DNA of 16,598 nt from Candidatus Omnitrophota bacterium (GTDB lineage: Bacteria > Omnitrophota > Gorgyraeia > JABMRN01 > RBG-13-46-9): the NCBI GenBank assembly GCA_013203315.1, contig JABMQJ010000028.1, positions 1-16,598 on the forward strand, written 5' to 3'. The first letter of the stretch is position 1. Every line of letters begins with the position of its first letter. The notes below the pieces were generated by a model that searched no databases, was not told the origin of the DNA, and worked only from the letters and a program-made list of their open reading frames with translations. Made by a program: the position numbers and the translations under genes. Below are positions 1 to 15,505 of the stretch, one piece after another.

Positions 1-470
1 CAGGCCCAAGGCCCATAACCCCTGGCATAGGCGAGGGAGGAAGACATCCGATAACCCCTGGCATAGGCGAGGGAGGAAGGCATCCGAGACCAAAGCCAAG
101 GCCAATAGACCCGGTAGTCTTAAAATACGCCCCAGGTCCAATACCGAAGCCGATAGATCCACCAATGGTACTGAAATACGCCCCAGGCCCAATACCGAAG
201 CCGATAAAACCACCGATTGCCCTGAAATACGCCCCAGGCCCAATACCGGGGAACACGGTAAGCGTTACAATGAAAGTGACAAAAACCAATGACGAAACCG
301 TGAATAAGCTTGTACTGCGGAAAATAGCAGAATTACGAAACAAAATACGCGAAGCCTTTAACGGACCAACGGAAAAAATGGGAAGAAACATAAATGTATC
401 AGTGAGTAAAGGCCCGGAATTAAAAAAAGTAACGTTAATGGTAGGCGAAGACATTAGCAATCCCAAGTAA
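1..470 (+). CDS. Proline-rich tandem-repeat protein, 5'-truncated at the window edge; C-terminal ~75 aa resemble a TonB/TolA-type ββαβ domain. The ORF-track start at 165 is an internal Met.
   Basis: The frame of the tracked ORF 165..470 is open with no stop from nt 3 to 470. Translation reads GPRPITPGIGEGGRHPITPGIGEGGRHPRPKPRPIDPVVLKYAPGPIPKPIDPPMVLKYAPGPIPKPIKPPIALKYAPGPIPGNTVSVTMKV... Repeat periods are 36 and 51 nt, both multiples of 3. Differences between copies are mostly synonymous (tta/ctg Leu, ggt/ggc, cca/ccg, aga/agg). The ATG at 165 corresponds to ATT (Ile) in the next repeat copy. The tail GNTVSVTMKVTKTNDETVNKLVL-RKIAELRNKIREAF-GRNINVSVSKG has β-β-α-β topology like TonB_C, preceded by a PIPKPIKPP rigid linker. 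The TonB call is by eye only. Confidence 0.55.
   Translation, partial: GPRPITPGIGEGGRHPITPGIGEGGRHPRPKPRPIDPVVLKYAPGPIPKPIDPPMVLKYAPGPIPKPIKPPIALKYAPGPIPGNTVSVTMKVTKTNDETVNKLVLRKIAELRNKIREAFNGPTEKMGRNINVSVSKGPELKKVTLMVGEDISNPK
15..86 (+). repeat. Two perfect-phase 36-nt tandem coding repeats (12 aa, ITPGIGEGGRHP) differing by one synonymous a/g
   Basis: ataacccctggcataggcgagggaggaag[a/g]catccg at 15-50 and 51-86. Confidence 0.8.
120..254 (+). repeat. About 2.7 copies of a 51-nt tandem coding repeat (17 aa, [V/A]LKYAPGPIPKPI[D/K]PP[M/I])
   Basis: Units at 120-170, 171-221 and 222-~254; motif aaatacgccccagg[t/c]ccaataccgaagccgata. Confidence 0.8.
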
Positions 471-493
471 AAAAGGGATAAATAACGTAATTA

Positions 494-533
494 AAGGGTA
501 TCTTCTTCAAATAAGGAGATACCCTTTTCTTTT
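494..533 (+). terminator. Rho-independent terminator after the Pro-rich protein gene
   Basis: aagggtatct(tctt)/(aagg)agataccctt stem of 10-14 bp with G·U, loop caaat, then ttttctttt. Confidence 0.8.
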
Positions 534-538
534 AATCT

Positions 539-567
539 TTGCCTATTTTAAATAAATAATGTATACT
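539..567 (+). promoter_or_regulatory. Sigma70-like promoter for the rSAM operon
   Basis: -35 TTGCCT (539-544), 17-nt spacer, -10 TATACT (562-567); GGAGG RBS at 585-589 lies 7 nt before ATG 597. Confidence 0.55.
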
Positions 568-596
568 TAACTCAAAGCATAAATGGAGGAACTAAA

Positions 597-1730
597 ATGG
601 ATCCAAGAGAAGCGGAAAGAAGAAAATGGGTGAAAACATTAAAACCAGAAACCATAGTGTGGGAAATAACCTTAGCCTGCAATATGAAATGTATACATTG
701 CGGTTCAAGCGCAGGCCCTTTAAGAAAACGGCCGGATGAATTAAGCACGAAAGAAGCTATAGGCCTTATCAGACAATTAAAAGAAATAGGAACCGAAAGA
801 ATTGTCCTGTCAGGAGGAGAACCTTTCTTAAGAAAAGATTGGGAAGTTTTGGCGAAGGAAGTAGCCGCGTTAGATATGATACCGTCTTTTATTAGTAATG
901 GTTTTTTGTTAGATGAAAAAAAAGCAGAAAAAATAAAGGCTTTGAACAGACCGGATGCCCATGTGGGCGTGAGCGTTGACGGAGACGAGAAAACCCACGA
1001 TTATATAAGACAGACCAAAGGCTCTTTTAAAAAAGCGACCAGCGCACTCGAAATACTGAAAGAGAAGGGAATCTTTGCTTCAGCCATAACGCAGGTGAAT
1101 ATGCTTAATTTCAAGTTATTGCCGAAGATAAGAGACCATGTATTTAAACGTGGAATTTATGTTTGGCAGATTCAGTTGGCAACGCCATGGGGAAGGTTAG
1201 CCAAAAATCCCAAACTTCTCTTGACACCAAAGAATTACCTAAAATTAGTAAAATTTATAGCAGAACAACGGAAAATATTCGGAGAGAAAATTGTAGGCGC
1301 TGACGACATCGGATACTATACAGAATTAGAACAACAAATAAGGCCTCAGAAAGAATGGGGCGGATGTCACGCCGGGTTAAGGGCGCTTGGCTTAACAAGC
1401 AATGGTAATGTAACCGGCTGTCTGTCGCTGCAGGAACCGCAGTTTATCGAAGGCAATATCCGCAAGCGAAAATTAAAAGATATCTGGTATGACCCTAACC
1501 TTTTCTCCTATAATAGAAATTTTAAAGAGGAATGCATGGAAGGATTTTGCAAGGAGTGCCCCTACCGGCTGAAATGCCGCGGCGGATGCAAGAATACGGC
1601 ATATGCATTTACGGGTTCTCTCTATAATAATTGTTACTGCGTTTTTAGAGTCATGCGCGGCAAAAAAGCACCGTCGATGAAAAAGATGCTGGGGAATAGA
1701 ACGACCGGTGCCGGACAGTATCACCCATAG
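597..1730 (+). CDS. Radical SAM / SPASM-domain enzyme, anSME/QhpD-like architecture with no N-terminal RRE
   Basis: CNMKCIHC (CxxxCxxC, Cys28/32/35, nt 678-701). GGEPFL glycine-rich SAM motif. C-terminal Cys cluster WGGC...TGC...EEC-x4-C-x2-C-x5-C-x3-C...NNCYC, consistent with SPASM two-auxiliary-cluster domains. The CxxxCxxC lies only 28 aa from the N-terminus, so there is no room for an RRE. Confidence 0.85.
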   Translation: MDPREAERRKWVKTLKPETIVWEITLACNMKCIHCGSSAGPLRKRPDELSTKEAIGLIRQLKEIGTERIVLSGGEPFLRKDWEVLAKEVAALDMIPSFISNGFLLDEKKAEKIKALNRPDAHVGVSVDGDEKTHDYIRQTKGSFKKATSALEILKEKGIFASAITQVNMLNFKLLPKIRDHVFKRGIYVWQIQLATPWGRLAKNPKLLLTPKNYLKLVKFIAEQRKIFGEKIVGADDIGYYTELEQQIRPQKEWGGCHAGLRALGLTSNGNVTGCLSLQEPQFIEGNIRKRKLKDIWYDPNLFSYNRNFKEECMEGFCKECPYRLKCRGGCKNTAYAFTGSLYNNCYCVFRVMRGKKAPSMKKMLGNRTTGAGQYHP

Positions 1731-1739
1731 GAGGTAATA

Positions 1740-2693
1740 ATGGGGAAAATTACCATAGGCATTGTCGGCGCGGAAAATGAAGCGCACTCTGCCCATATGA
1801 AAAACATCCTTCAGGAAAAAGGAATAGATACACTAATTATCGATACACTCAAGTATCCCGAAAGCGTAACATTAAGCATTACAGACAATGATGTAATATA
1901 CAACGGAAAGTCCCTACGCAATATAAATGTCTTTTATATCAGGTCCCTATTCTATAGTTTACCGCCTTATGACCTGGAACAGAGGAGGCGTGAGACAGAG
2001 GTTGACCTTGACAATTGGTATGTAGAATATATGGCAGAAAGGGAAAGGCAGTCCCATCTTACCTCGTGGTTATGGATTGAGGCCGGAAAAGGAAAGCATA
2101 TCATAAACCCTGTCGATTCTTTCGATACCCATTATCTTAAGCCCTATCAAATATATCTGCTGAGAAAAAATGGTATTCCGATACCAAAAACGTTAGTAAC
2201 TAATGACGAAGAAAAACTAATAGAATTTGTAAAAAAAACAAAAAGATTAATATATAAACCGGTAGCAGGGGGTGCGAAATGTAAAGAGTTATTTAAAAAG
2301 GACCTAACCAGAGAAAGATTGGAGCGACTTCGAAACTCACCTGTTTTGTTTCAAGAGCTGATAGAGGGGGATAATATAAGAGTATATGTTATAAACAATA
2401 AAATAGTATCAAGCAATGTGATTAAATCGGATGCTTTGGATTATAGGGGATCAGAGAAAGAGATATTTCCAATTTCTTTACCCGATAAAGTAAAAAAGAG
2501 GTGTATTAAAGCGGTAAAGATATGTAAAATGAAATACAGCGGTATAGATTTGAGAAGAAAATCTTCAGGCGAGTACGTATTTTTAGAATGCAATCCATCC
2601 CCGATGTTTTTGGGGATGGTTGAGGCGGCAGGCGACCCGATAGACGAATATTTTGCCGATTACCTTATTAAATTAGCGAAAAGCAGGATATGA
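1740..2693 (+). CDS. ATP-grasp ligase, RimK / glutathione-synthetase-like
   Basis: Strong RBS taggaggtaataATG. Motifs IYKPVAGGAKCKEL, LFQELIEGDNIRVYVI, GIDLRRKSSGEYVFLECNPSPMF are typical of the RimK-like ATP-grasp fold. Starts 9 nt after the rSAM stop. Confidence 0.8.
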   Translation: MGKITIGIVGAENEAHSAHMKNILQEKGIDTLIIDTLKYPESVTLSITDNDVIYNGKSLRNINVFYIRSLFYSLPPYDLEQRRRETEVDLDNWYVEYMAERERQSHLTSWLWIEAGKGKHIINPVDSFDTHYLKPYQIYLLRKNGIPIPKTLVTNDEEKLIEFVKKTKRLIYKPVAGGAKCKELFKKDLTRERLERLRNSPVLFQELIEGDNIRVYVINNKIVSSNVIKSDALDYRGSEKEIFPISLPDKVKKRCIKAVKICKMKYSGIDLRRKSSGEYVFLECNPSPMFLGMVEAAGDPIDEYFADYLIKLAKSRI

Positions 2694-3649
2694 GTAACGC
2701 GGAATGCCAGGATTTTGCAGATAGGAAATTCCACAATATCTTCCATTTCGAATACGGCCTTCTGGACGATAGCACTTTCTGGATATCACCCGGCAATAAC
2801 ACCCTCTTGAGAATTGATAAATTCACATTGAATATATTACTGGATTTGAACACTGGAAAATCTATGTGCGAGGCGGCAAAAAAATATAATGTAGAGTTAA
2901 AAGAAGTAACGGATATTTATAATAGACTTGAGCAAAACGGATTTGTAGTAGCAGCAAACTTCGGAAAAATAAAACGTTCAAACCCAAAAGAAGACATAGA
3001 TATCGCCCCGTATATTTTGATTTTTTTAGCATTGATAATCGGACAACTTTTTTACTTCACTCATATGGCAAAGACAGTCCTGATGAATAAAACAATCGAA
3101 GGCATAGTAGTCGGCGCTATTGCCATAGCAGCTATTTTTTTTCACGAACTCGGCCATTATTTAGTCTCTTGGAAATATACAAAAGTAAAACCTAAAATGA
3201 AATTCGCTATTTTAAAAATATTTCCGGTAATCTATGTCGACACAAACCTCGCGTGGCGGCTTCCGAAGAACGAAAGGCTTCTTGTAAGTTTAAGCGGTGT
3301 GTTTTTTGATTTGATTATAAATACGATTGTGGTAATATTAGTATTGGGAAAAGGCTCTTTGGAATATTTCGTTACGCCATTTTTGTTGACCCAGTATATA
3401 AGGATTTCTATTTTAATTAACCCTGTTTTTAAGGGCGACGGATATTGGATATTGTCAGACCTGCTGGGTGCCGTAAATATGGAAAGGAAAGGTATTGAAG
3501 AATTAAAAAGGGGTAAAATAAACTTCTTTTCCCTGTACGGAGTTATATCTTTAATCTTTTCTATATTAGCTGCATTCGGCTTGATATGGTTTATATATAA
3601 TTTGGCAAGACCGTTTATCGTAAATTTTGTGTTACCGTTTTTTAGATAA
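2690..3649 (+). CDS. Polytopic membrane HExxH metalloprotease (S2P/M50-like) with an N-terminal cytoplasmic PqqD-like RRE domain
   Basis: Overlaps the ATP-grasp stop by ATGA. Residues ~27-88, FWISPGNNTLLRIDKFTLNILLDLNTGKSMCEAAKKYNVELKEVTDIYNRLEQNGFVV, match the PqqD/RRE pattern (LN..g..iw.ll.g..t..ei...l...y.v....v..D....l..L...g.v). HELGH sits in a TM helix (aa 152-156, nt 3143-3157). A second motif INPVFKGDG (aa 243-251) resembles the S2P NxxPxxxLDG zinc-ligand motif. At least 6 hydrophobic TM segments. Confidence 0.65.
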   Translation: MSNAECQDFADRKFHNIFHFEYGLLDDSTFWISPGNNTLLRIDKFTLNILLDLNTGKSMCEAAKKYNVELKEVTDIYNRLEQNGFVVAANFGKIKRSNPKEDIDIAPYILIFLALIIGQLFYFTHMAKTVLMNKTIEGIVVGAIAIAAIFFHELGHYLVSWKYTKVKPKMKFAILKIFPVIYVDTNLAWRLPKNERLLVSLSGVFFDLIINTIVVILVLGKGSLEYFVTPFLLTQYIRISILINPVFKGDGYWILSDLLGAVNMERKGIEELKRGKINFFSLYGVISLIFSILAAFGLIWFIYNLARPFIVNFVLPFFR

Positions 3650-3663
3650 AGAGGGAGGGTATT

Positions 3664-4437
3664 ATGGAGTTCATGAAATCATTAAATTTCTTGGGATTCG
3701 GCATTTTAATATTTATTGTATTTATTATCGCAGCCGCCATAAGGATAGTAAAGCAGTATGAAAGAGCAATTGTTTTTAGGCTCGGAAAGTTTATCTGTAC
3801 AAAAGGTCCGGGTTTAATCTTTATAATACCTATCATAGATAGGGCCCTAAAAGTAGACATACGAGTAAATTCTATAGACGTGCCAAGACAGGAAACTATA
3901 ACAAAAGATAATGTGTCGGTTATTGTCGATGCCGTAGTATACTACAAAGTAGAGAATCCGGAAAAGGCCATAATAGAAGTCAAGAATTCCATCGAGGCCA
4001 CATTTCTTATAGCACAGACGACCTTGAGAAGCGTAATAGGTCAGACAGAGCTCGATGGGCTTCTATCGCAAAGAGACGAAATCAATAAAAATTTGAGAGA
4101 AATTATCGACAAACATACCACTCCCTGGGGGATAAAGGTAATTACGGTGGAGATAAAAGAATTAGCTTTACCGGAAGAGATGAAGCGTGCCATGGCAAGG
4201 CAGGCAGAGTCTGAGAGAGAAAGAAGAGCAAAGATTATAAACGCCGAAGGCGAATACCAGGCCGCGGAAAAATTACGCCAGGCAGCAGAAATAATGAGCA
4301 AAGAGCCGATCACGGTGCAATTACGTTATCTTCAAACGCTTTCGGAGATTTCTGTCGACAAGAGCTCAACCATAATTTTTCCGGTCCCTATTGATTTAAT
4401 ATCTAATATTTTGAAAAAAGCGGACGAAAAAAAGTAG
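3664..4437 (+). CDS. SPFH / band-7 (stomatin/prohibitin-like) membrane scaffold protein
   Basis: Strong RBS agagggaggg. N-terminal TM helix FLGFGILIFIVFIIAAAI. Core SPFH signature RLGKF...GPGL.FIIP..D....VDIR....DVP.Q...TKDNV.V.VDAVVYYKV, coiled-coil Ala/Glu/Arg-rich C-terminus. Confidence 0.85.
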   Translation: MEFMKSLNFLGFGILIFIVFIIAAAIRIVKQYERAIVFRLGKFICTKGPGLIFIIPIIDRALKVDIRVNSIDVPRQETITKDNVSVIVDAVVYYKVENPEKAIIEVKNSIEATFLIAQTTLRSVIGQTELDGLLSQRDEINKNLREIIDKHTTPWGIKVITVEIKELALPEEMKRAMARQAESERERRAKIINAEGEYQAAEKLRQAAEIMSKEPITVQLRYLQTLSEISVDKSSTIIFPVPIDLISNILKKADEKK

Positions 4438-4466
4438 ACTAATACACGGCCAAATAATCTTCACCC

Positions 4467-4497
4467 AAAATGTCTACCCTTAAATGGTGGACATTTT
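4467..4497 (+). terminator. Hairpin, probably bidirectional terminator after the SPFH gene
   Basis: aaaatgtctacc / ggtggacatttt 12-bp stem with one G·U, 7-nt loop; the A-tract and U-tract form the stem base. Confidence 0.5.
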
Positions 4498-4596
4498 GCA
4501 ACTATCCATATCTGAGAGAGTTACAAAAGTAGTGGACAAAATGGACACTTCTTCGCCAAATACTTACGCGTTTGGCTTCGAAGTGCAGGCAAAATA

Positions 4597-4797
4597 TCAG
4601 TACTCTTGTTCGAATTTGTCCATTCCGTATTTGCAAGCCTTTTTGGCCGTTTTTGTGTTTATGTTCAAGCTTTTGGCTATCTTTTCATAGCGCATTCCAA
4701 GTAGTCGCAATTCTGTTGCTTTTTGGGCTAATCTTTGATATAAATGTATATATTGAACAAGTAATATCTTAATATGTGTGGTAATTTCGGCTAATGT
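4597..4797 (-). other. Open minus-strand frame encoding an HTH-like peptide, with no canonical start apart from an internal ATG (4695) or TTG (4710)
   Basis: Reverse-strand translation ...ILLVQYIHLYQRLAQKATELRLLGMRYEKIAKSLNINTKTAKKACKYGMDKFEQEY* has a helix-turn-helix pattern reminiscent of sigma70 region 4 / small transposase HTHs. No convincing RBS. Confidence 0.2.
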
Positions 4798-4836
4798 TCA
4801 AATTGGTTGCAGCCGAATCCGCCAACGTAAACAAAT

Positions 4837-6541
4837 TATGTCATACCTATCACTAGCCAGAAAATACAGACCCCAGAAGTTTGATGAAATCGTAGGCCAG
4901 GACCACATCGCCACCACGCTTAAAAACGCCGTTACCCTGGAAAGGGTTGCGCACGCCTATCTCTTTGCTGGGCCAAGAGGAGTCGGCAAGACCTCAACGG
5001 CGCGAATCTTGGCAAAAAGCTTAAACTGCGAAAAAGGCCCGACCCCGGCGCCCTGCGGCAAGTGCACATCATGCACTGAGATCGCCAAAAGCATAAGCAT
5101 GGACGTTATAGAAATAGACGGCGCCTCGAACAGGGGAATCGATGAAATAAGAAACTTAAAAGAAAACATAAAATTCGCCTCCATCCACGGAAAATTCAGG
5201 ATATATATTATCGACGAAGTTCACATGCTGACGCAGGAGGCGTTTAACGCGCTTTTAAAAACCTTAGAAGAGCCCCCGCCTCACGTAAAGTTTATTTTCG
5301 CGACAACACAGCCCCACAAGGTATTGCCTACGATCATTTCCAGGTGCCAGCGTTTCGACTTCAGGAAAATTTCAGCAGAAGACATTACAAAAAAAATAAA
5401 AGAGATCAGAAAAAAAGAAGATTTAAAATTAAACGATGACGCGACATTCCTGATTACAAAGGCAGCCGACGGAAGCATGCGTGACGCAGAAGTAATTCTC
5501 GACCAGCTTCTTTCGTTTACAAAAGGAAAAATTGAAGCAAACGACGTCACAAATGCCCTGGGTTTATTAGAAGGAGAGATACTCCTTGACATAGCAGAAG
5601 CTATTTTAAAAAACGAAAAAGAAAAGATTTTAAATCTTCTAAACGAACTCATAAACAGCGGAAAAGATCCTGTTTTCATAGCCTCAAGCATCATAGAGCA
5701 TTTCAGGAATCTTTTGGTGGCAAACGTAGCAAAGGATGATACAAAAGCCTACATGACGCTTTCCGAAGAGGATAATAACAAGCTAAAAACGCAAGGTAAG
5801 AAGTTTTCACTCGACGAGATTTTATACATTACGTACACGTTATCCGCCACGATAGAATTCATAAAGAAAACAAGCCTGGGGCGCATACCGCTTGAGATTT
5901 CGCTCATAAAATTAACCGAAAGAAAAAAACTTACCTCGATAAAAGAAATTTTAGAAAGGCTCTCGTCCTTCGAAAAAAAGATAGGAAGCGGCGAAGAAAT
6001 TCCGCAAGGGATAAGAGTTCAAGCTGCGTCACCTGAGATGATAATAGAAAAAGAAACTCCTCCCGTAGTGTCAAAAGCAGTGCCGGAGCCCGAACTTGCC
6101 GCGGAAAAAGATATACTACTTTTGCAGAAAATAAAAACCTCCTGGATTAATATTATTAATTTCATAAAACAAAAGAAAATGTCCGTAGCGACTTTTCTTT
6201 CCGACGGGAGGCTGCTTAACGTAAAAGACAGGACCCTCGCGATAGGCTTCGGAAAAAATAGCTCACTCCACAAAGAACAGATCGAGGCAAACACAAATAA
6301 AAAGTTTGTAGAAGAGGCTATCCGTAGCGTTGTGGGCGAGGACGTATCTTTAAGCGTTGAAAGCGTGGAAGACGAACCCGGGCAGGGAAATGAAATACCG
6401 GGTAACGAAAAAAACGCTTCGCAGGAAGAGGCTACAAGCGGCCGGACAAATAAAATAGATCCGATAGTAGAATCAGCCATCGGCATATTTGACGGAAGAA
6501 TCATAGATATAAGAAGAGCCAAAAAAGAGGGTACAGGATGA
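4837..6541 (+). CDS. dnaX: DNA polymerase III subunit gamma/tau
   Basis: MSYLSLARKYRPQKFDEIVGQ N-terminus. Walker A GPRGVGKTS. Zn module C-x8-CGKCTSC. DEVHML. SRCQRFDF sensor. I prefer the ATG at 4837 over the track's GTG at 4778 because the N-terminus aligns with canonical DnaX. Confidence 0.9.
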
Positions 6542-7137
6542 AGGGTTTGCCGGATTCAATGAAGGCAGTGATAGGCGAATTTAGTAAGATGCCGGGAATC
6601 GGCCCCAAATCAGCCCAGCGGCTTGCTTTTTCTATCCTGACACGGCCGGCCGAAGATGCCAAAAAGCTTTCAGAGGCGATAATAAAGCTTAAAGAAAGCG
6701 TAAAGTTTTGCAAAATTTGCAACAACCTAAGTGATGCGGAAATTTGCAGTATATGCGGCAATGAAGCAAGGGATAAAACGCTACTTTGCGTAGTAGAGAA
6801 GCCGAGCGACGTGATTTCCATAGAGAGAATGGGGGAATTTAACGGTTTGTACCACGTGTTATTGGGCTCACTTTCTCCGTTAGACGGAGTTGGGCCCGGG
6901 GATTTAAAAATAGACGAATTATTAAAGAGGGTTAGAAGAGAAAAAATCGAGGAAATCATAATCGCAACTGCCTCCAATACGGAAGGCGAGGCAACGGCCC
7001 TCTATCTTATAAAAGTATTAAAATCCCAGGGGGCCAAACTATACAGGATTGCCTACGGGGTACCTATGGGCGCTAATCTTGAATATACCGATCAAGCGAC
7101 TTTATATAAGGCATTCGAAGGAAAAAAGGAAGTTTGA
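6538..7137 (+). CDS. recR: Recombination protein RecR
   Basis: MPGIGPKSAQRLAF HhH motif. C4 zinc finger CKIC...CSIC. Toprim LCVVEKPSDV. Overlaps the dnaX stop by ATGA. Confidence 0.9.
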   Translation: MKGLPDSMKAVIGEFSKMPGIGPKSAQRLAFSILTRPAEDAKKLSEAIIKLKESVKFCKICNNLSDAEICSICGNEARDKTLLCVVEKPSDVISIERMGEFNGLYHVLLGSLSPLDGVGPGDLKIDELLKRVRREKIEEIIIATASNTEGEATALYLIKVLKSQGAKLYRIAYGVPMGANLEYTDQATLYKAFEGKKEV

Positions 7138-7138
7138 C

Positions 7139-7167
7139 TTGACACTGGGTCGAATATAGTGTAAATT
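7139..7167 (+). promoter_or_regulatory. Sigma70-like promoter
   Basis: Perfect TTGACA (7139-7144), 17-nt spacer, TAAATT (7162-7167); AT-rich tatataat follows; RBS aaggagg at 7200-7206. Confidence 0.5.
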
Positions 7168-7213
7168 TATATAATAGTTTAATATATATCAAGTAACATT
7201 AAGGAGGATGATA

Positions 7214-7999
7214 ATGAGTATAATAGAAGCTGTTAAAAAGGGTTTTACGATGAGCGGAAAGCTGCTCAACGTCGTAATCATATTTTTTATTCTTAACGTT
7301 GTCATGGGCCTTGTAAGCCTGCCATTCGCAAGTCCGGAAAACGTGGGAAATCCCGGTGTTGCGGCAATTTCATTTATCTTAAGCTTAGTGTTTTTTGCTA
7401 TTTTCATTTTCTTGCAGGGGGGTGCCCTGGGGCTCACAAGAGACCTCCTCAAAACAGGCGCCTGCAACATATCCAGTTTCGCAAGTTATGGAAAGAAATA
7501 TTATGTAAGAATTCTCGGACTTTTACTGCTTTACGTTTTGGTAGCAGTAGCACTCGTGCTGGTTCTCGGACTAGCCGGAAGCGGGATCCTGGCACTAGCC
7601 AATAACCTCATTACGAGAACTATCGTCGGAGCCATAGCAGGGATTGTCGCGATTGCAGCGATTGTTATACTTCTATTTCCTATTTATGCAATTGTTGCCG
7701 ATGATGCGAGCGTAATGCAGGCATTCAAAAAAGGCACGAAGCTTGGCAAAGAAAATTTCTGGAACATATTAGGGCTTTTCCTTGCACTGGTCGTTATCAG
7801 CGTTGTTATTTCGTTAGTAATCGGGTTCGTAATCGGGCTCATCACTGTCCCGTTGCCATTTGCGGTAACTCAGATAATAATAACCATCGTAAACGGTGCG
7901 GTACAATCTTATATTCCTATTGTCATGATGCTGGCTCTTATGGGTTGTTACTTGGGATTATCAAAAGGCCAAGGCGGCTCACAAACCGGCCCCGCATAG
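7214..7999 (+). CDS. Polytopic Gly/Ala/Val-rich integral membrane protein of unknown function
   Basis: About 6 long hydrophobic segments and a short polar N-terminus. Second ATG chosen because the SD aaggagg is 7 nt upstream. No catalytic motif recognised. Confidence 0.6.
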   Translation: MSIIEAVKKGFTMSGKLLNVVIIFFILNVVMGLVSLPFASPENVGNPGVAAISFILSLVFFAIFIFLQGGALGLTRDLLKTGACNISSFASYGKKYYVRILGLLLLYVLVAVALVLVLGLAGSGILALANNLITRTIVGAIAGIVAIAAIVILLFPIYAIVADDASVMQAFKKGTKLGKENFWNILGLFLALVVISVVISLVIGFVIGLITVPLPFAVTQIIITIVNGAVQSYIPIVMMLALMGCYLGLSKGQGGSQTGPA

Positions 8000-8027
8000 A
8001 CTTCTAAAAGTATAGAAATTCACTAGA

Positions 8028-8600
8028 ATGAAAGACATGCTAGAAATAAGGTGGCATGGCCGGGGCGGCCAGGGCGCTAAGACGGCGTCCCAGTTTTTGG
8101 CTGAATCGGCCTTAGAGCTCGGAAAATCTATCCAGGCATTCCCCGAATACGGCCCTGAGAGGGCCGGCGCTCCTATCCGCACATATACAAGAATAAGCGA
8201 CCACCCGATAAGCATACACTCACCGGTAACCACCCCTGACTTTGTCGTAGTAATAGACCCGACACTCTTAGAAAGTGTAAACGCCGCTGAAGGGTTGAGC
8301 GATAAAGGGGTTTTGGTTGTAAATACCACAGAGGACGTAAGTGCGATACGCCGGAAGGCTAATTTTACAAAGGGTAAAGTAGCCGTTTGCGACGCGACAA
8401 AAATTTCACTGGAGATTCTCGGGATCCCGATGCCGAATACGCCGATGCTGGGCGCGTTACTAAAGGTCGAGCAGATCGTGTCAATTGAGGCGCTGGCAAA
8501 CAACGTGCGAAAGAAATTCATTAAAAAGATCGGCGAAGAAAAAACAGAGGCAAACGTAAAAGCGATAAAGCGCGCCTTTGAAGAAACGAAAATAGGATAA
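8028..8600 (+). CDS. porG: Pyruvate:ferredoxin oxidoreductase gamma subunit
   Basis: IRWHGRGGQGAKTASQFLAE...PEYGPERAGAP..T.RISD is the canonical POR gamma signature. Confidence 0.85.
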   Translation: MKDMLEIRWHGRGGQGAKTASQFLAESALELGKSIQAFPEYGPERAGAPIRTYTRISDHPISIHSPVTTPDFVVVIDPTLLESVNAAEGLSDKGVLVVNTTEDVSAIRRKANFTKGKVAVCDATKISLEILGIPMPNTPMLGALLKVEQIVSIEALANNVRKKFIKKIGEEKTEANVKAIKRAFEETKIG

Positions 8601-8601
8601 G

Positions 8602-8880
8602 ATGGCGAAGAAAAAAGGCTGGAAAGAGATACCGATCGGCGGCCTGATAGACAAAGGTGGCACTGCCAAAGAATATAATACAGGTTCGTGGAGAACCTTT
8701 AAACCTATTGTAGATCAATCAAAATGTATAAACTGCCTTCAGTGCTGGATATATTGTCCTGATTCGTCCGTTATCGTAAAAGACGGAAAAATGGAAGGCT
8801 TTGACTACGAGCACTGCAAGGGTTGCGGCATATGTGCGAGCATTTGCCCCGTGAAATGCATAAAAATGGAAAGAGAATAG
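8602..8880 (+). CDS. porD: Pyruvate:ferredoxin oxidoreductase delta subunit (2x[4Fe-4S] ferredoxin)
   Basis: CINCLQCWIYCP and CKGCGICASICP cluster motifs; starts 1 nt after the porG stop. Confidence 0.85.
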   Translation: MAKKKGWKEIPIGGLIDKGGTAKEYNTGSWRTFKPIVDQSKCINCLQCWIYCPDSSVIVKDGKMEGFDYEHCKGCGICASICPVKCIKMERE

Positions 8881-8897
8881 TGGAGACGGAAGTAAAA

Positions 8898-10085
8898 ATG
8901 GCGACACAGAAGTTAGTACCGCTAACAGGGGACCAGGCCGTAGCCGAAGCGATGAGGCAGATCGAGCCGGACGTTGTCGCAGCTTACCCGATTACGCCGC
9001 AGACAGAAATCGTCATGAATTTTTCGCAGTTTGTAGCAGACGGCAAAGTGCAGACTGAATTAATACCCGTTGAATCCGAACACAGCGCCATGAGTGCCTG
9101 TGTCGGTTCAGCTGCAGCGGGCGCACGCACGATGACAGCAACCTCCGCGAACGGCCTTGCGCTTATGTGGGAAATCGTCTACATCGCCGCTTCGACACGT
9201 TTACCTATAGTTATGCCTGTTGTAAACAGAGCCCTCTCGGGCCCGATAAACATACACTGCGATCACTCCGACACCATGGGCGCCAGAGACTCCGGCTGGT
9301 TGCAGGTTTTTTCCGAGAGCGCGCAAGAAGCTTATGAGAACACCATTGTAGCGATTAGAATAGCTGAACACAAAAAGATTCTTTTACCGTGCATGGTATG
9401 CCAGGACGGATTTATAACAAGCCACGCTGTTGAAGGTATAGAATTATTCCCGGACGATAAAGTTAAAAAGTTCATAGGCGAGTATACAATAGAGCATAGT
9501 TTGCTTGATATGGATAATCCTGTGACTTACGGGCCCATAGACCTGCAGGACTTTTATTTTGAACACAAACGTCAACAGGCCGAGGCCATGAAGGGCGCGC
9601 TAACGATTATTCCGGAAGTTTTAGCGGAATTCAATAAAACATTCAACCGAAATCACGATCTACTCGAAGAATACAAGCTTAGCGATGCCGACATAGCGAT
9701 AGTTGCTACAAGTTCGACCGCAGGCACAGTAAAAGCAACGATAGATGAGCTCAGAAAACAGGGCATGAAAGTCGGTCTTCTAAAGCCAAGGTTCTTCAGG
9801 CCATTCCCGAAAGAAAGATTTGTAAAATCCCTTTCAAATATAAAAGCAATTGCAGTTTTGGATCGAAGCGACTCGTTCTCGGCGCAGGGCGGGCCATGGT
9901 TCAGTGAAATTAAAGCTGCGCTTTACGAATCGAAAAAACAACCCTTGATCACAAATTATATATTTGGGCTCGGCGGCCGCGATATTTTTCCCGAGAATAT
10001 AAAAAAGGTATATAGCGACTTAGAGGCGATTAAAAAAGCAGGTAAAGTTAAATCGCTGGTTAATTATTTAGGCGTAAGAGACTAA
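8898..10085 (+). CDS. porA: Pyruvate:ferredoxin oxidoreductase alpha subunit
   Basis: MATQKLVPLTGDQAVAEAMRQIEPDVVAAYPITPQTEIV N-terminus typical of PorA. ATG at 8898 has RBS ggagacgga. The track's 8823 start would overlap porD in another frame. Confidence 0.85.
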   Translation: MATQKLVPLTGDQAVAEAMRQIEPDVVAAYPITPQTEIVMNFSQFVADGKVQTELIPVESEHSAMSACVGSAAAGARTMTATSANGLALMWEIVYIAASTRLPIVMPVVNRALSGPINIHCDHSDTMGARDSGWLQVFSESAQEAYENTIVAIRIAEHKKILLPCMVCQDGFITSHAVEGIELFPDDKVKKFIGEYTIEHSLLDMDNPVTYGPIDLQDFYFEHKRQQAEAMKGALTIIPEVLAEFNKTFNRNHDLLEEYKLSDADIAIVATSSTAGTVKATIDELRKQGMKVGLLKPRFFRPFPKERFVKSLSNIKAIAVLDRSDSFSAQGGPWFSEIKAALYESKKQPLITNYIFGLGGRDIFPENIKKVYSDLEAIKKAGKVKSLVNYLGVRD

Positions 10086-11011
10086 TGGCTAATATAAAAG
10101 AATTATCAAAGATCCCGGAGCGCTTAACAGGCGGGCACAGGCTTTGTTCAGGTTGCGGGGCCTCTATTGCGGTAAGACAAGTTCTCATGGGGACAACCTC
10201 GCCTGTTGTCGTGGGCGCATCAACCGGCTGCCTTGAAGTCGCAACGACCATATATCCTTATACTGCCTGGAATACACCTTTCATCCATAACGCGTTTGAA
10301 AACGTAGCCGCGACGATAAGCGGCGTGGAAACAGCTTACCGCGCTTTGAAAAAACAGGGCAAAATTAAAAAAGACATTAAATTCGTTGCCTTTGGCGGCG
10401 ACGGCGGAACATATGATATCGGGCTTCAATCGCTATCAGGCGCGCTTGAAAGAGGCCATAACTTTGTATACGTCTGCTATGACAACGAAGGCTATATGAA
10501 CACCGGTATCCAGCGCTCGAGCGCGACACCGACAGGGGCCTCGACTACAACGGCCCCCGCGGGTAAAGAAAGCTACGGAAAACCGCAGTTAAGGAAAGAT
10601 CTTACCGCGATCGTAGCCGCGCATAACATACCTTACGTCGCCCAGGCGTGTATTTCGAACTGGAACGACCTTGTAGCGAAATCACAAAAGGCCTTTGCCG
10701 TAGACGGCCCGGCGTTCTTAAACGTCCTGGCACTCTGCCATAGAGGCTGGCGTTCTCCTGCGGCCGATGCGATCAAGATCTCCAAGTTAGCAATAGATAC
10801 AGGCTTCTGGCCGTTAATAGAATATGAAAACAAAAAGTGGCGCTTTACCTATAAACCGAAAGAAAGAAAGCCCGTCGTAGAATTTTTAAAAACACAGGGC
10901 CGATTCAAACACCTCTTCAAAGAGCAGAATAAGCCCGTCTTAGAGCAAATCCAAAGAGACATCGATGCCCACTGGACCTATCTCGAAAAGCTCGTCCAAG
11001 TCACATCCTAA
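10085..11011 (+). CDS. porB: Pyruvate:ferredoxin oxidoreductase beta subunit (TPP-binding)
   Basis: CSGCG...FGGDGGTYDIG TPP/Mg motif; start overlaps the porA stop (taATGg). Confidence 0.85.
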   Translation: MANIKELSKIPERLTGGHRLCSGCGASIAVRQVLMGTTSPVVVGASTGCLEVATTIYPYTAWNTPFIHNAFENVAATISGVETAYRALKKQGKIKKDIKFVAFGGDGGTYDIGLQSLSGALERGHNFVYVCYDNEGYMNTGIQRSSATPTGASTTTAPAGKESYGKPQLRKDLTAIVAAHNIPYVAQACISNWNDLVAKSQKAFAVDGPAFLNVLALCHRGWRSPAADAIKISKLAIDTGFWPLIEYENKKWRFTYKPKERKPVVEFLKTQGRFKHLFKEQNKPVLEQIQRDIDAHWTYLEKLVQVTS

Positions 11012-11032
11012 AGCGCGCTCTAAAACTTACCC

Positions 11033-11062
11033 TTTACAAGCCACAAGATAGCGATATATAAT
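11033..11062 (+). promoter_or_regulatory. Sigma70-like promoter for the MscS gene
   Basis: TTTACA, 18-nt spacer, perfect TATAAT (11057-11062); RBS aaggaga at 11087-11093. Confidence 0.5.
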
Positions 11063-11100
11063 ATAACAGTCGTATAGCTCAAAAATAAGGAGAACAAACT

Positions 11101-12156
11101 ATGTTTCAAGATATGCTAGAGAACGTATTTTTAGGAAATCGTGTTTTGGACTATTTAATATGCTTAGGGGTATTCCTGGGATGCTTTATAGTCATTCAAA
11201 TCATACGGTTAGTTGTTATAAAACGCCTCAAGAAATGGGCGGAAAAAACCACTACCACTATCGACGATCTTGTAATTCGCATCATCCAGAAGATCATTGT
11301 TCCGATAGCGTATATGGGTGTTTTATATGTAAGCGTTAATACCTTGACCCTCGATTCCATGGCAGAAAAAGCCGTAAATATAATAGCTACGGCCTTTCTT
11401 ACAGTGTTTTCAGCTCGCCTGGCTATCATCCTGACAACCGAAGGCTTTGCCATGTATTTGGCGAAAAAAGGAAAGACTGCATCCCTGGAAAGAAGCTTGA
11501 AAGGCATCACGGGCATATTAAAGATAATCATATGGGGCCTGGCGGTTACTTTCTTTCTGGATAATCTTGGATTTAAAATATCAGCAGTTATAGCGGGGCT
11601 CGGCATAGGCGGCGTGGCAGTAGCATTAGCAGCGCAAGCTGTCCTGGGGGACCTATTCAGTTACTTTGCGATAGTATTTGACCGCCCGTTTGAAATAGGG
11701 GATTTCATAATAATAGGGGACTACCTGGGAGTCATAGAGCACATAGGAATAAAAACAACACGTATAAGAAGCCTCGGCGGGGAACAGCTTATCTTTTCCA
11801 ACACGGACCTTACAAATTCAAGGGTACGTAACTATAAAAGAATGCAAAAAAGAAGGGTTGTTTTTAAGCTCGGCGTTACATATCAAACCCCGCTCGCTAA
11901 GTTAAAAGCCATTCCCGGCATGATCGAAAAAATAATAAAAAACGTTAAAGATACCGTATTCGACCGCGCACACTTTTCTACATACGGCGATTTTAATCTT
12001 GTGATCGAAGTCGTTTATTACGTTTTAAGCTCGGATTATAATAAATACATGGACACCCAGCAACAGATCAATTTTGCCATAAAAGAAGAGTTTGAAAAAG
12101 AAAAAATCGAATTCGCATATCCTACTCAAACGTTATACATGGATAAAGCCGCCTAA
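11101..12156 (+). CDS. Small-conductance mechanosensitive channel, MscS family
   Basis: Pore-helix GLGIGGVAVALAAQ followed by the β-domain FEIGDFIIIGDYLGVIEHIGIKTTRIRSLGGEQLIFSNTDL. Confidence 0.9.
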   Translation: MFQDMLENVFLGNRVLDYLICLGVFLGCFIVIQIIRLVVIKRLKKWAEKTTTTIDDLVIRIIQKIIVPIAYMGVLYVSVNTLTLDSMAEKAVNIIATAFLTVFSARLAIILTTEGFAMYLAKKGKTASLERSLKGITGILKIIIWGLAVTFFLDNLGFKISAVIAGLGIGGVAVALAAQAVLGDLFSYFAIVFDRPFEIGDFIIIGDYLGVIEHIGIKTTRIRSLGGEQLIFSNTDLTNSRVRNYKRMQKRRVVFKLGVTYQTPLAKLKAIPGMIEKIIKNVKDTVFDRAHFSTYGDFNLVIEVVYYVLSSDYNKYMDTQQQINFAIKEEFEKEKIEFAYPTQTLYMDKAA

Positions 12157-12161
12157 GAGAA

Positions 12162-13094
12162 ATGAAAATTTTCATAACAGGGGCAACCGGTTTTATCGGG
12201 GGACATTTTGCAAGGCGGATGGCCGGTAACGGCCACGAGGTAATCTGCGGCGGACGATCACCCGCAAAACTAAACTCTCTTCCCAAGGAATATAATCCTG
12301 TCCGCATATACCTGGAGCACAAAGAAACGATCTCCCGCGTATTAAAAAAAGAGCATCCGGACATCGTTTGCCACGCCGCCGCGTTAGTCGAAAGTAACTC
12401 CCTCGAGAACCTCCGACGGGTAAATGTAGACGGTACAAAGAATGTCCTGGACGCCTGCCTTGCATTTGGCATAAAGAAAGTAATATACGTAAGCTCTGTA
12501 GCCGTAATAAGCGGCAATAAAGAAGTTCCTCTAACAGATGATTTACCCTACAAAGCCACAAACGCATACGGCCAGTCCAAAGCGGAAGCTGAAAAAGTAG
12601 CTATTGCCTATAGAAAAAAAGGCCTAAAAATAGCAATTTTAAGGCCGTGCATAGTTTATGGCGAAGATGAGCCGCACGCGCTACATATTTTAATAAAATG
12701 GCTAAAACAGAGAACGCTTCCTATTTTCGGCGAAGGGGACAATAAACTTCAGCTTGTTTCCGTGGAGAATGTGGTAGATGTAATGGCTCTTTGTCTTTCA
12801 AGAGAAGAGGCATACGAGGGAACGTATCTTATCGCTGATAAAGAAATGTTGAGCGTAAAAGAGCTATTTTATTGTATTACCCGGGCAATAGGGGCCAAGA
12901 GCCCTATTCATGTTCCTCGGATATTTGTAGAGCTTTTTGTGAAGTTACCCGTAATAGGTAGAAGGGCATCTTTTTTCCTAAAAGATAGAACCTATAGTAT
13001 CGGTCGAATTAAAGAAAAACTCGGATACGTTCCGCGCGTTTCTACTTGCGATGGGATTAAAAAAGCAGTATTATCATATGGGAAAGGCAGGTAA
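12162..13094 (+). CDS. NAD-dependent epimerase/dehydratase (extended SDR)
   Basis: IFITGATGFIGGHF Rossmann motif and YGQSKAEAE catalytic YxxxK. Confidence 0.8.
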   Translation: MKIFITGATGFIGGHFARRMAGNGHEVICGGRSPAKLNSLPKEYNPVRIYLEHKETISRVLKKEHPDIVCHAAALVESNSLENLRRVNVDGTKNVLDACLAFGIKKVIYVSSVAVISGNKEVPLTDDLPYKATNAYGQSKAEAEKVAIAYRKKGLKIAILRPCIVYGEDEPHALHILIKWLKQRTLPIFGEGDNKLQLVSVENVVDVMALCLSREEAYEGTYLIADKEMLSVKELFYCITRAIGAKSPIHVPRIFVELFVKLPVIGRRASFFLKDRTYSIGRIKEKLGYVPRVSTCDGIKKAVLSYGKGR

Positions 13095-13097
13095 CTC

Positions 13098-13571
13098 ATG
13101 GCAAAGGTATTAATTACATATTATTCAAGTTCCGGCAACACCAAGGCGATGGCTCAGAAAATAGAAGCGACAATAAAAAAAGAAGGCGTCGAAACCGTCT
13201 TAAAAAAAGTAGAAGACGTTGATGCGGGTAATCTCATATCTTACGACGGCATCGTTATAGGTTCACCTACCTACTACGGCACCATGGCCTGGCAGGTGAA
13301 GAAATTACTCGACGAGAGCATATGCCATCACGGCAGCTTAAAAGGTAAGGTAGGTGGCGCCTTCTCCTCCGCGGCAAACGTAGGCGGCGGCAACGAAACC
13401 ACTATAAATGATATACTAAACGCGCTTCTCATCCACGGCATGATTATACAGGGTGAGCCAAAAGGCGACCACTACGGGCCCGTTGCGATAGGTGCGCCTG
13501 ATAAGCGTTCTCTAGACTGCTGCGAGCGTCTCGGTAAAAACATAGCAGACCTTGTAAAGAAAGTATCATAA
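13098..13571 (+). CDS. Flavodoxin-fold FMN protein (WrbA/NAD(P)H:quinone oxidoreductase-like)
   Basis: YYSSSGNTKAMA phosphate-binding loop, GSPTYYGTMAWQVK, GGAFSS...GGGNETT. Confidence 0.75.
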   Translation: MAKVLITYYSSSGNTKAMAQKIEATIKKEGVETVLKKVEDVDAGNLISYDGIVIGSPTYYGTMAWQVKKLLDESICHHGSLKGKVGGAFSSAANVGGGNETTINDILNALLIHGMIIQGEPKGDHYGPVAIGAPDKRSLDCCERLGKNIADLVKKVS

Positions 13572-13574
13572 TAC

Positions 13575-15500
13575 ATGATATACGACCCGTTTCAAGAAAA
13601 AGCCATAAACTACATAAAAGAGGGCCATTCGGTCATCGTCTCTGCCCCTACGGGCGCGGGAAAAACCGTCATAGCCGAATACGTCATAAACGATTGCCTC
13701 GAGAATAATAAAAAAGCAGTTTACACAGCCCCCATAAAAGCCCTCTCAAACCAGAAATTCCGTGAGTTCACGGCAGGATTCCCGGGGAAAATAGGAATCT
13801 TAACAGGTGACGTTAGCATAAACGCGGATGCGCCTATCCTTATCATGACCACGGAAATATTCCGCAATAAAATTCTCGAGGAAAGTGAAAGCCTGAAAGA
13901 CTATTCCTGGATAATATTCGACGAGATACATTATCTCGACGATTACGAGCGCGGCACGGTCTGGGAGGAGTCGCTTATATTTTTACCAAAACACATGAAG
14001 ATGTTAGCGCTTTCAGCTACAATACCGAACATAGATAAATTCGCCGAATGGATACATTCAATTCATAAAAAGCCTTTAAAAATCGTAAAAGAAGATCATA
14101 GGCCCGTTCCGCTTCACTTTTTTTACCAATGCCAGGGAAAAGTTGTAGATAGCCTCTCTAGAGTTGGAAATCTCGGGCATGACAGAATGAAATTCTATTA
14201 TCATCGCGGACGCAGATTTGCTAAAAAGGAACATCTCAAGCCCAATAAACCGACATCTTTAATCAAACACCTTCTTGACAATGACCGCCTGCCGTGTATA
14301 TATTTTTGTTTCGGAAGAAGACGTTGCGAATACCTCGCTGAGGAAATGTACAATTTCGATTTCCTGAATGCCGAGGAGAAAATTAAAATAAAGGCAAACT
14401 TTCATGAGCTCTGCAAGAAGTTTGACCTCACCAATGAAAAAAGAGCCCTCATGCTGGAACCCCTTATCGAAAGGGGCATCGCATATCATCACGCGGGAAT
14501 GCTTCCCACACTAAAAGAGGTTGTTGAAAGGCTTTTTACATCAAGGCTCATAAAGGTAATATTCACAACCGAAACTTTCGCGCTCGGGATAAACATGCCG
14601 GCGAGAACGGTTGCCTTTGATGAACTCAGGAAATTCTACGGCAGGTTTTTCAGCAACCTTAAAACGCGCGATTTTTATCAGATGGCGGGAAGGGCCGGAC
14701 GCAGGGGTATAGATACGGAAGGCTTTGTTTACAGCCGCGTGAATCCGCACGAGGTAACTTATGACGAACTGAAAAGAATGATATACGGCGAGCCCGAAAT
14801 GGTCCGCTCGCGATTTAACGTATCTTACGCTACCGTATTAAATCTCTATGAAAAATACAGTGAAAAAATTTACAACATATACCCGTATTCGTTTCATTAC
14901 TTCCAGGAGAAGAAAAAGCTCCACGATAGGGCGCTCGGGCTCATGCGGTCAAAAGTAGAAATCTTAAAAGAACTAAATTATATAAAAGAAAACCGCCTTA
15001 CAAGAAAAGGCAGTTTCGCTGCCAATATTTACGGTTATGAACTTTCACTCTCGGAGCTCTACGAAAAGAATGCGCTTGAATACCTTTCCCCGAAAGAGCT
15101 CGGCATCCTGGCCCTTGCGCTTGTTTTTGAACCGCGCCCCGGCTGCCAAAAGCCGCAACTAAGCAAAGCGGCTAAGGGCCTGCAAAATATTACGGAAAAA
15201 ACAGTAAAAGACATCCAGAAAGTAGAAAAAAAATACGGCATAATGCCGCCAAGTAAAGCCTACCACTTTCATCTTTCACCGTGCCTTGAGGCATGGATGG
15301 ACGGCGCAGAGTTCTCAAAGATTTTGCGTTTCAGCGTGGCGGATGAGGGAGGGGTAATACGCTACTTCAGAATGGCGATCCAAATCCTGCGTGAAATAAT
15401 GGACGTAAGGGTTTCCGAGACACTTAAGGACAATATCAAAAAAGCCCTCGAGCTCATAAACCGCGACATAATCGACGCTGAAAAGCAGCTGCGTACTTAA
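13575..15500 (+). CDS. Ski2-like DExH-box (superfamily 2) helicase
   Basis: Q motif FQEKAI. Motif I APTGAGKT. Motif II FDEIHY. Motif III SAT. HHAGM, characteristic of the Ski2/Hel308/HelY family. Motif V TETFALGINMPART. Motif VI QMAGRAGRRG. Confidence 0.85.
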   Translation: MIYDPFQEKAINYIKEGHSVIVSAPTGAGKTVIAEYVINDCLENNKKAVYTAPIKALSNQKFREFTAGFPGKIGILTGDVSINADAPILIMTTEIFRNKILEESESLKDYSWIIFDEIHYLDDYERGTVWEESLIFLPKHMKMLALSATIPNIDKFAEWIHSIHKKPLKIVKEDHRPVPLHFFYQCQGKVVDSLSRVGNLGHDRMKFYYHRGRRFAKKEHLKPNKPTSLIKHLLDNDRLPCIYFCFGRRRCEYLAEEMYNFDFLNAEEKIKIKANFHELCKKFDLTNEKRALMLEPLIERGIAYHHAGMLPTLKEVVERLFTSRLIKVIFTTETFALGINMPARTVAFDELRKFYGRFFSNLKTRDFYQMAGRAGRRGIDTEGFVYSRVNPHEVTYDELKRMIYGEPEMVRSRFNVSYATVLNLYEKYSEKIYNIYPYSFHYFQEKKKLHDRALGLMRSKVEILKELNYIKENRLTRKGSFAANIYGYELSLSELYEKNALEYLSPKELGILALALVFEPRPGCQKPQLSKAAKGLQNITEKTVKDIQKVEKKYGIMPPSKAYHFHLSPCLEAWMDGAEFSKILRFSVADEGGVIRYFRMAIQILREIMDVRVSETLKDNIKKALELINRDIIDAEKQLRT

Positions 15501-15505
15501 AGAGG

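Follow-up and report, generated by a model that had tools for sequence, protein, structure and literature searches.

The question raised by this locus is which substrate and which reaction belong to the enzyme of the radical S-adenosylmethionine (SAM) type encoded at positions 597-1730 of a contig from a Candidatus Omnitrophota bacterium (assembly GCA_013203315.1, contig JABMQJ010000028.1, positions 1 to 16,598 of the forward strand; this whole stretch of 16,598 nucleotides is referred to below as the window). A preliminary description had classed the enzyme as anSME-like and had proposed that it depends, in the manner of PqqE, on a recognition domain encoded by the next-but-one gene, overlooking both a substrate gene upstream and the peptide-cyclase nature of the intervening ATP-grasp protein. 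Positions 3-4437 of the window are read here as an operon for a peptide made on the ribosome and modified after translation (RiPP), in which the enzyme would be a splicease-type maturase that excises tyramine, with an estimated probability of about 0.6. It is considered highly probable that, by whatever reaction, the enzyme matures a RiPP by modifying the Tyr repeats encoded upstream. Overall, the locus is best read as a spliceotide-graspetide hybrid whose enzymes share a single precursor with several cores, and its product seems to be a string of protease-inhibitor units. The observations behind it are the gene content, the homologies, the co-occurrence of motifs and the RiPP recognition element (RRE) fold. 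The operon genes and the elements of the precursor region are the following:

3..470, + strand: precursor gene, 3′ part (by translation; frame open from the first base, 5′ end beyond the window)
18..74, + strand: two ITPGIGEGG units (18-38 and 54-74), proposed Thr-Glu ester sites (T-x4-E)
123..233, + strand: three Lys-Tyr-Ala-Pro-Gly-Pro sites (KYA at 123-131, 174-182 and 225-233), proposed targets of the radical SAM enzyme
429..452, + strand: VTLMVGED at the C-terminus of the precursor, a graspetide-type core of the form VTxxxxED
493..527, + strand: 15-bp hairpin followed by a T-run (terminator or attenuator-like), between the precursor and enzyme genes
597..1730, + strand: radical SAM/SPASM enzyme gene, 377 amino acids (aa), from Pfam, NCBIfam, an alignment of homologues and an AlphaFold2 (AF2) model
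1740..2693, + strand: predicted PsnB-type ATP-grasp peptide macrocyclase (group 2 graspetide synthetase), from the PDB match and NCBIfam
2690..3649, + strand: predicted intramembrane HExxH metalloprotease (RRE-fold domain at its N-terminus, 2690-2980)
3664..4437, + strand: membrane scaffold protein of the SPFH/Band 7 type, whose gene closes the operon (Pfam Band_7, E 4e-40)

The enzyme gene is preceded by a GGAGG ribosome-binding site located 8 nt 5′ of its open reading frame (ORF), and is followed by the ATP-grasp gene after a 9-nt gap that also holds a ribosome-binding site. The ATP-grasp and HExxH genes overlap by 4 nt, with the start of the latter over the stop of the former, and 14 nt separate the HExxH gene from the SPFH gene. 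Within the precursor gene, two ITPGIGEGGRHP units are followed by three xxLKYAPGPIPKPIxPP units and by a non-repeat tail of 75 aa ending in VTLMVGEDISNPK, and the DNA itself is tandemly repeated (period 36 at 15-87 and period 51 at 123-248). Among the contigs listed, the four with an identical radical SAM enzyme all break within this gene. The leader region lies outside the window, which shows TPGIGEG twice and VTLMVGED once. Two full-length orthologues were found, P0163 and P0164, which are 55-59% identical, have the same tail, start with MRKKKKRLFIESLEQRRSTSPLLV, carry the leader sequence MRKKKKRLFIESLEQRRSTS and have no signal peptide. Their VLKYGPGPKPP sites, of which P0163 has four and P0164 has three, alternate with QMTIWVGEDG and YTTLSLGEEG units. 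Since these repeats carry VLKYGPGP at the equivalent positions, the Lys-Tyr-Ala of the window corresponds to the Lys-Tyr-Gly of the orthologues. Moreover, VTLMVGED is kept as VTLTVGED in both of them, and a VTxxxxED motif has been reported for RcpA (PMC11626197). None of the precursors matched a Pfam family significantly, and the length of the window precursor is unusual for a RiPP.

Tyr sites of the same kind recurred beside homologues of the enzyme, which at about 40-46% identity span many bacterial and archaeal phyla. The sites of the related loci (designated L) include KYAPP, RYAV, KYGP, LYGIP and LYGVP, either repeated or single. In particular, MYAV and RYAV sites were found in L007/8 together with three or two TTMAVGEE units, and several KYGP sites lie beside the homologue in L009/10. 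In L099, the sites RPLYGIPSP and IVKYGPAP each occurred twice, together with TTMAVGEG and TTLAVGEE, and KYGVP sites adjoin the homologue in L018. In L006 and L017 there are five to eight units of the xKYAPPxC type and no other pathway gene. The more distant homologues often adjoin small peptides with ends such as IKPLYGIPPE, or LLYGV/YYGV repeat proteins. Counted on the enzyme strand within 2 kb, the Tyr-site motif gave 112 matches against 31 expected from the distal flanks, and was present in 28 of 51 loci against 13 of 51 (Fisher p = 0.004). As this first motif had been designed after the data were seen, the enrichment was retested with the YG dipeptide of the literature and with control dipeptides. 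The YG dipeptide was enriched 1.54-fold, with the controls YS and FG at 1.0.

Regarding the composition of the sites, Lys or Arg precedes Tyr in 23 out of 30 sites of the close clade, and the residue after Tyr is Ala (19 sites) or Gly (11 sites), while the distant set shows Leu or Met before Tyr and Gly after it. Position +2 from Tyr is conserved as P/V/I/A. The published rule for splicease sites is X-Tyr-Gly (PMC11414181, PMC9811515, PMC11626197), and the splice tags of PlpXY are PIRPLYGLPI and AVAAGYGVVFP (PMC10533398), which the Tyr sites of the related loci resemble; sites that conform to the X-Tyr-Gly rule are carried by many of the homologous loci. For two loci with a 71% identical enzyme (L097 and L098), no precursor was found in the stretches examined; housekeeping genes lie 3′ of the enzyme in L097, and the L098 stretch begins inside another SPASM gene.

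The family placement of the enzyme points in the same direction. Among 78 NCBIfam families, its best match was TIGR04103 (nif11-class peptide radical SAM maturase 3) with 260 bits. TIGR03913 (GDL-motif peptide maturase) came second with 230 bits and the third-ranked family gave 165 bits, although no family cut-off was reached. TIGR04103 is presumably the same entity as InterPro IPR026482. The founding tyramine splicease, PlpX, has been assigned to the SPASM subclass IPR026482 (PMC11002830), and a literature search by the names TIGR04103 and TIGR03913 gave no match. Furthermore, a PGAP-annotated TIGR04103 protein of Nostoc sp. C057 was 40.4% identical to the enzyme over 344 aa (E 5e-81; tblastn, plasmids). 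The Nostoc gene adjoins a Nif11 precursor whose core past the GG site is RGSIALYGLPPELF, and a Y-like ORF of 71 aa occupies the PlpY position there.

As to the enzyme itself, three elements of its gene were located:

678..701, + strand: CX3CX2C radical SAM cluster motif, C28/C32/C35 (alignment of homologues)
1365..1640, + strand: SPASM region with seven invariant Cys, from C257 to C348 (Pfam, alignment)
1716..1727, + strand: C-terminal Gln-Tyr-His-Pro (alignment; clade-specific)

The radical SAM-SPASM identity, the short N-terminus and the length of about 377 aa given in the preliminary description were borne out by this motif and by the Pfam domains Radical_SAM (residues 23-165, E 2e-24) and SPASM (residues 257-322, E 5e-8). 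It had also counted at least seven C-terminal Cys, enough for two auxiliary clusters. Nine are present past residue 250, of which C257, C275, C318, C321, C327, C331 and C348 are invariant in 29 homologues (43-92% identical), while C313 and C346 vary. As predicted from the sequence, the seven invariant residues would suffice for the two clusters. The AF2 model (mean predicted local distance difference test score, pLDDT, 89.6) shows a single short helix ahead of the barrel, from which the enzyme is concluded to have no RRE domain of its own, as had been proposed. In addition, an extension of about 30 aa is found at the C-terminus in the close clade (at least 54% identity) and is missing from the distant homologues. 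It ends in a conserved G-x-G-(Q/K/H)-(Y/F)-H-P (window 1701-1727, residues 369-377), an end that resembles an X-Tyr-x-Pro substrate site. This QYHP tail is disordered in the AF2 model, which is therefore silent on any docking of the tail.

Several observations weigh against tyramine excision, and some of them would suit a different radical reaction on the same Tyr repeats, such as a Tyr cross-link (a cyclophane to the +2 residue, usually Pro/Val/Ile, or a Lys-Tyr link) or epimerisation. All three visible sites of the window are X-Tyr-Ala instead of the published X-Tyr-Gly, and no report of Ala being accepted after Tyr was found in the literature. The conserved P/V/I/A at position +2 would fit a three-residue cross-linking motif, and many radical SAM/SPASM peptide cross-linkers are known (PMC11851443). 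The chemistry of radical SAM/SPASM enzymes can change at about 40% identity to an annotated member, which is just the identity shared with the annotated splicease-family protein, and the 260 bits obtained with TIGR04103 compare with an equivalog cut-off of 725. Neither the PDB sequence search nor the literature (PMC11414181) gave a splicease structure for comparison of the active site, and no small ORF resembling a Y-type activator was seen in the window. Against a different reaction, the two best scores were obtained with the PlpX-type family and with its sister family, and the cross-linker families scored far lower (133 bits for WgkB, 75 for DynA and 67 for PapB). Moreover, Gly and Ala interchange at one and the same position between orthologous precursors, and what stays constant is Tyr plus a small residue, the signature of a splice site. 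A reaction other than splicing is thus regarded as unlikely, although it keeps more weight than most of the other explanations considered below.

The second chemistry was deduced from the ATP-grasp protein. Its best PDB match was 7DRM (E 5e-54, 187 bits, query residues 5-310, that is, the full length), which is PsnB, the macrocyclase of the group 2 graspetide plesiocin. If the chain of 7DRM is taken to carry a tag of 20 residues, the PsnB residues R72, R101 and R213, which touch the core peptide, appear to be aligned with R68, R101 and R214. The plesiocin precursor PsnA2 has four TTxxxxEE cores and a leader element, LFIEDL, bound by PsnB. Among the homologous and orthologous precursors, leaders with LFIESLE, LFIRDLE and LFIEELE were found, as well as the cores TTMAVGEE, TTLAVGEE and TTLSLGEE, all of which, judged by sequence, match the PsnA2 pattern. 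Furthermore, a T-x3-G-E-[EDGS] unit was present in all three precursors from loci with an ATP-grasp gene and in none of the seven from loci without it.

The two remaining genes of the operon would serve the release of the product. The motifs of the HExxH protein are:

3143-3157, + strand: HELGH
3437-3448, + strand: DGYW

Its invariant residues are H152, E153, H156, P245, D250 and G251, within the motifs HExxH and N-P-x4-D-G-Y-W. The NCBIfam models of the daptide and YydH/LiaK-type proteases matched weakly but specifically (E 1e-14), with 54.5 bits against an equivalog cut-off of 300 and 52.8 bits against 225. Because these cut-offs were not reached, the protein is taken as a protease of the same type lying outside the named families. 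Its first 97 residues (AF2 pLDDT 86) form strands at 20-24, 29-33 and 40-43 followed by three helices, and nearly all the best Foldseek matches of this domain were RREs (TigE, LynD, TruD, TbiB1, MccB and PqqD), with a probability up to 1.0 and a template modelling (TM) score up to 0.67. According to the model, the domain thus has the RRE fold (a three-strand sheet plus a three-helix winged helix). The preliminary description had placed an RRE on the next-but-one gene, which holds only at the level of the fold; Pfam gave no PqqD match to this domain and only weak winged-helix hints at E > 0.1. It should be added that RREs are divergent in sequence (PMC11414181). The first strand of the domain contains FHFEYGLLD (window 2741-2767, residues 18-26), and the Tyr-Gly of this F-x-Y-G-x-L-D strand, invariant in the close HExxH family and missing in distant relatives, is part of a Glu-Tyr-Gly which, in formal terms, agrees with the splice motif.

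The SPFH gene co-occurred with the HExxH gene in all the related loci, and both accompany the radical SAM gene in the close clade as well as in four of the distant loci. Only loci encoding this pair showed the leader pattern hhh-[ERDK]-x-[LI]-E-x-R-x-S-[TS]. In the four distant loci, the SPFH protein is fused in one ORF, via a low-complexity linker, to a second radical SAM/SPASM domain, which shares 29-30% identity with the enzyme of the window, and the fusion gene is situated directly upstream of the stand-alone homologue and of precursors with Tyr-Gly repeats. These fusions are:

L029, 4786-6984: SPFH-radical SAM fusion
L026, 3326-5359: SPFH-radical SAM fusion
L037, 4987-6957: SPFH-radical SAM fusion
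L051, 4699-6981: SPFH-radical SAM fusion

Two roles can be considered for the RRE-fold domain. It might be an obligatory partner of the radical SAM enzyme, equivalent to PqqD or PlpY and presenting the leader to it, which would agree with its fold, with the restriction of the conserved leader motif to loci encoding the HExxH protein and with the requirement of cyanobacterial spliceases for a small RRE-like Y protein (PMC11414181). However, the close homologues in L005/6 and L017 (69% and 68% identical) stand beside leaderless KYAPP-repeat peptides without any RRE protein, most splicease pathways have been reported as binary, and PlpX is independent of the leader (PMC11414181). Moreover, the leader resembles the LFIEDL of PsnA2, an element bound by the ATP-grasp enzyme, and the fusion of the RRE to a protease points to targeting of the protease. 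The obligatory partnership is therefore judged improbable, to about the same degree as a non-splicing reaction, and a role of the RRE with the protease is held to be more probable than one with the radical SAM enzyme, because the close homologues adjoin leaderless KYAPP peptides without an RRE protein and PlpX is leader-independent (PMC11414181). For the same reason, the PqqE-like dependence proposed at first is doubtful: the homologues of L005/6, L017 and also L011 are found beside Tyr-repeat peptides without an RRE protein, and the RRE of the window is fused to the protease.

It was also considered that the Pro-rich repeat ORF upstream might be an unrelated structural or surface protein, with the true substrate elsewhere, namely the invariant Glu-Tyr-Gly of the RRE strand or the enzyme's own Gln-Tyr-His-Pro tail. 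The invariance of F-x-Y-G in the close HExxH family, the conservation of QYHP at the enzyme C-terminus and the uncommon length of the precursor would fit this view. On the other side, the repeat protein stays with the radical SAM gene when all the other genes are absent (L006, L017 and L011), it has a leader of the RiPP type and no signal peptide (P0163/P0164), and the Tyr-Gly of the RRE is lost in the more distant HExxH relatives, which leaves a substrate elsewhere very unlikely. Finally, an anSME/QhpD-like enzyme oxidising or cross-linking a folded protein encoded elsewhere can be practically dismissed in spite of the shared domain layout and length and of a fold that matches anSMEcpe comparably well (TM about 0.69), since the anSME model TIGR03942 gave 70.4 bits against a cut-off of 349.45 (rank 21), no anSME chain was retrieved at E 1e-3 in the PDB sequence search, no sulfatase domain was found in any other ORF of the window (as previously described), and a conserved peptide substrate adjoins the enzyme here and in the related loci.

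Concerning that resemblance, the nearest PDB structures by sequence were SkfB and PqqE, and the fold search, which does not resolve SPASM subfamilies, matched SkfB, PqqE, SuiB and anSMEcpe about equally (TM 0.62-0.71). As the matches to SkfB, PqqE and SuiB were about equally good, the likeness to anSME reflects the generic SPASM architecture. The family assignment of the preliminary description was hence abandoned, and the case carries a lesson for annotation, as an 'anSME-like' layout is no predictor of function.

Returning to the splicease-type reading, the following pathway is proposed, in which the whole of the chemistry, the sequence of events, the cleavage and the tolerance of Ala where Gly would follow Tyr are inferred. 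Judging from its orthologues, the window precursor would start with a leader of the type RLFIESLEQRRSTS, behind which two kinds of repeated cores would alternate along one polypeptide. The PsnB-like ATP-grasp enzyme would make side-chain esters from Thr to Glu/Asp at the T-x4-E(E/D/G) units. The radical SAM enzyme would cleave SAM reductively, and the 5′-deoxyadenosyl radical would drive the excision of a tyramine equivalent (C8H9NO, −135 Da) at each Lys-Tyr-Ala/Gly site, joining the carbonyl carbons of Lys and Tyr into an alpha-keto-beta-lysine residue. Such a residue would be a protease-inhibitor warhead with a basic side chain, and a Lys-derived ketoamide would suit trypsin-like enzymes. 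Both modifications are known pharmacophores of protease inhibitors (PMC11626197). The RRE-fused HExxH protease, organised by the SPFH protein, would then bind the leader and cut the product free. Taken together, a polyprotein of alternating Thr-Glu macrolactone hairpins and alpha-keto-beta-lysines, made by two unrelated RiPP enzymes from one operon and released at the membrane by an RRE-guided, SPFH-organised protease, with a splicease that accepts Tyr-Ala and a QYHP tail that acts as a regulatory pseudo-substrate, is put forward tentatively, the combination of all these parts being clearly less probable than the splicing reaction alone.

Beyond the operon lie housekeeping genes (dnaX, recR and the pyruvate:ferredoxin oxidoreductase genes), with a gap of 340 nt (4438-4777) between the SPFH gene and dnaX. 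A signal recognition particle RNA had been expected upstream of dnaX, yet Rfam found nothing in this gap, its only match in the window being a distal tRNA. An ORF of 68 aa in the gap (4484-4690), called as a gene on two other contigs, was considered as a precursor and rejected, having no family match and no Tyr-site repeats. Further along, the following were located:

8028-11011: four-subunit pyruvate/2-oxoacid:ferredoxin oxidoreductase operon (gamma, delta, alpha, beta)
13098-13571: flavodoxin gene, which could supply electrons for radical SAM enzymes
16370-16445: tRNA-Asn(GTT)

Other peptides were noticed beside homologous or related enzymes. A distinct family of Cys-rich precursors beginning MIYLIDPQ, which end in a single xCYGIPPE or xLYGVPTE site, adjoins homologous radical SAM genes in L020-L025, L027, L036 and L038-L040 (Ignavibacteria and Zixibacteria in GTDB), with a second radical SAM gene of about 450 aa directly upstream. 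On a plasmid of Azospirillum sp. B510 (L158, 2305-2760), DUF1843 'GDL motif' peptides adjoin a TIGR03913 enzyme; because these peptides contain RPYGPA and AAYGDV, it is suggested that the TIGR03913 family may also act on X-Tyr-Gly. Moreover, in a metagenome-assembled genome of Omnitrophota (L015, 6503-7901), a Cys-rich peptide of 61 aa (..CHCGAPPGGGVVSGAPICACMAIYTCQ..) is encoded next to a further radical SAM gene, at a distance of a few kb from the homologue with 55% identity, and is probably part of a separate RiPP pair.

To our knowledge, tyramine splicing is the sole cellular route to beta-amino, alpha-keto residues in ribosomal chains. It has already been applied in protein labelling and in the design of protease inhibitors. 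As of a 2022 review, no native spliceotide end product had been isolated (PMC9811515). If the proposed reading is true, a clade using Tyr-Ala and yielding a lysine-derived ketoamide at many tandem sites would widen the usable sequence rules of the splice code, and this would be the first fused graspetide and spliceotide precursor, the two having been known earlier only as neighbouring clusters. Furthermore, the recurrent RRE-bearing membrane protease with its SPFH scaffold offers a testable hypothesis for product release. Neither a single precursor with both kinds of core nor an operon that combines an SPFH protein with a protease fused to an RRE was found in the literature examined, which did not include Scott et al. 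(Chem 2022); the window clade may already figure in the splicease survey of that work.

In comparison with known systems, the enzyme shares with anSME its layout, length and two sets of auxiliary-cluster Cys, but differs in sequence family, in the absence of a sulfatase in the window and in its peptide-substrate context. The HExxH protein resembles the proteases of the YydH/LiaK epipeptide and daptide clusters in being a polytopic HExxH protease beside a radical SAM maturase in a RiPP cluster, although it falls far below their cut-offs, carries an RRE-fold domain and is always paired with SPFH. As to the spliceotides (PlpX/PcpX of type I with a Y protein, and the binary RhaX/RasX/RcsX of type II), the best family match is to the PlpX-type family, the enzyme likewise has no N-terminal RRE, and the adjoining precursor has several X-Tyr-small-hydrophobic-Pro sites like the splice tags of PlpA. 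In contrast, the sites of the window are Lys-Tyr-Ala instead of X-Tyr-Gly, with Lys/Arg as X instead of Met/Leu, and the precursor is a long tandem repeat with a graspetide-type leader instead of a Nif11/NHLP leader. The operon moreover has no Y protein and adds the RRE-fused membrane protease and the SPFH protein, and the enzyme carries the clade-specific C-terminal tail.

With plesiocin (PsnA2/PsnB), the system shares a full-length homologous ATP-grasp enzyme in which the three core-contacting Arg are apparently kept, the LFI-E-x-L leader element, seen in the homologous and orthologous precursors, and several TTxxxxEE or T-x4-E cores per precursor. Here, however, one polypeptide carries these cores in alternation with the proposed Tyr splice sites, a radical SAM gene is part of the operon, and the cores of the window are degenerate (TPGIGEG, with one Thr and one Glu). 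The closest parallel in content is found in the Rheinheimera loci with several biosynthetic gene clusters (PMC11626197), where the same two chemistries are encoded together and both products inhibit proteases; there, they are distributed over separate precursors and clusters, while here they would meet on one precursor in one operon.

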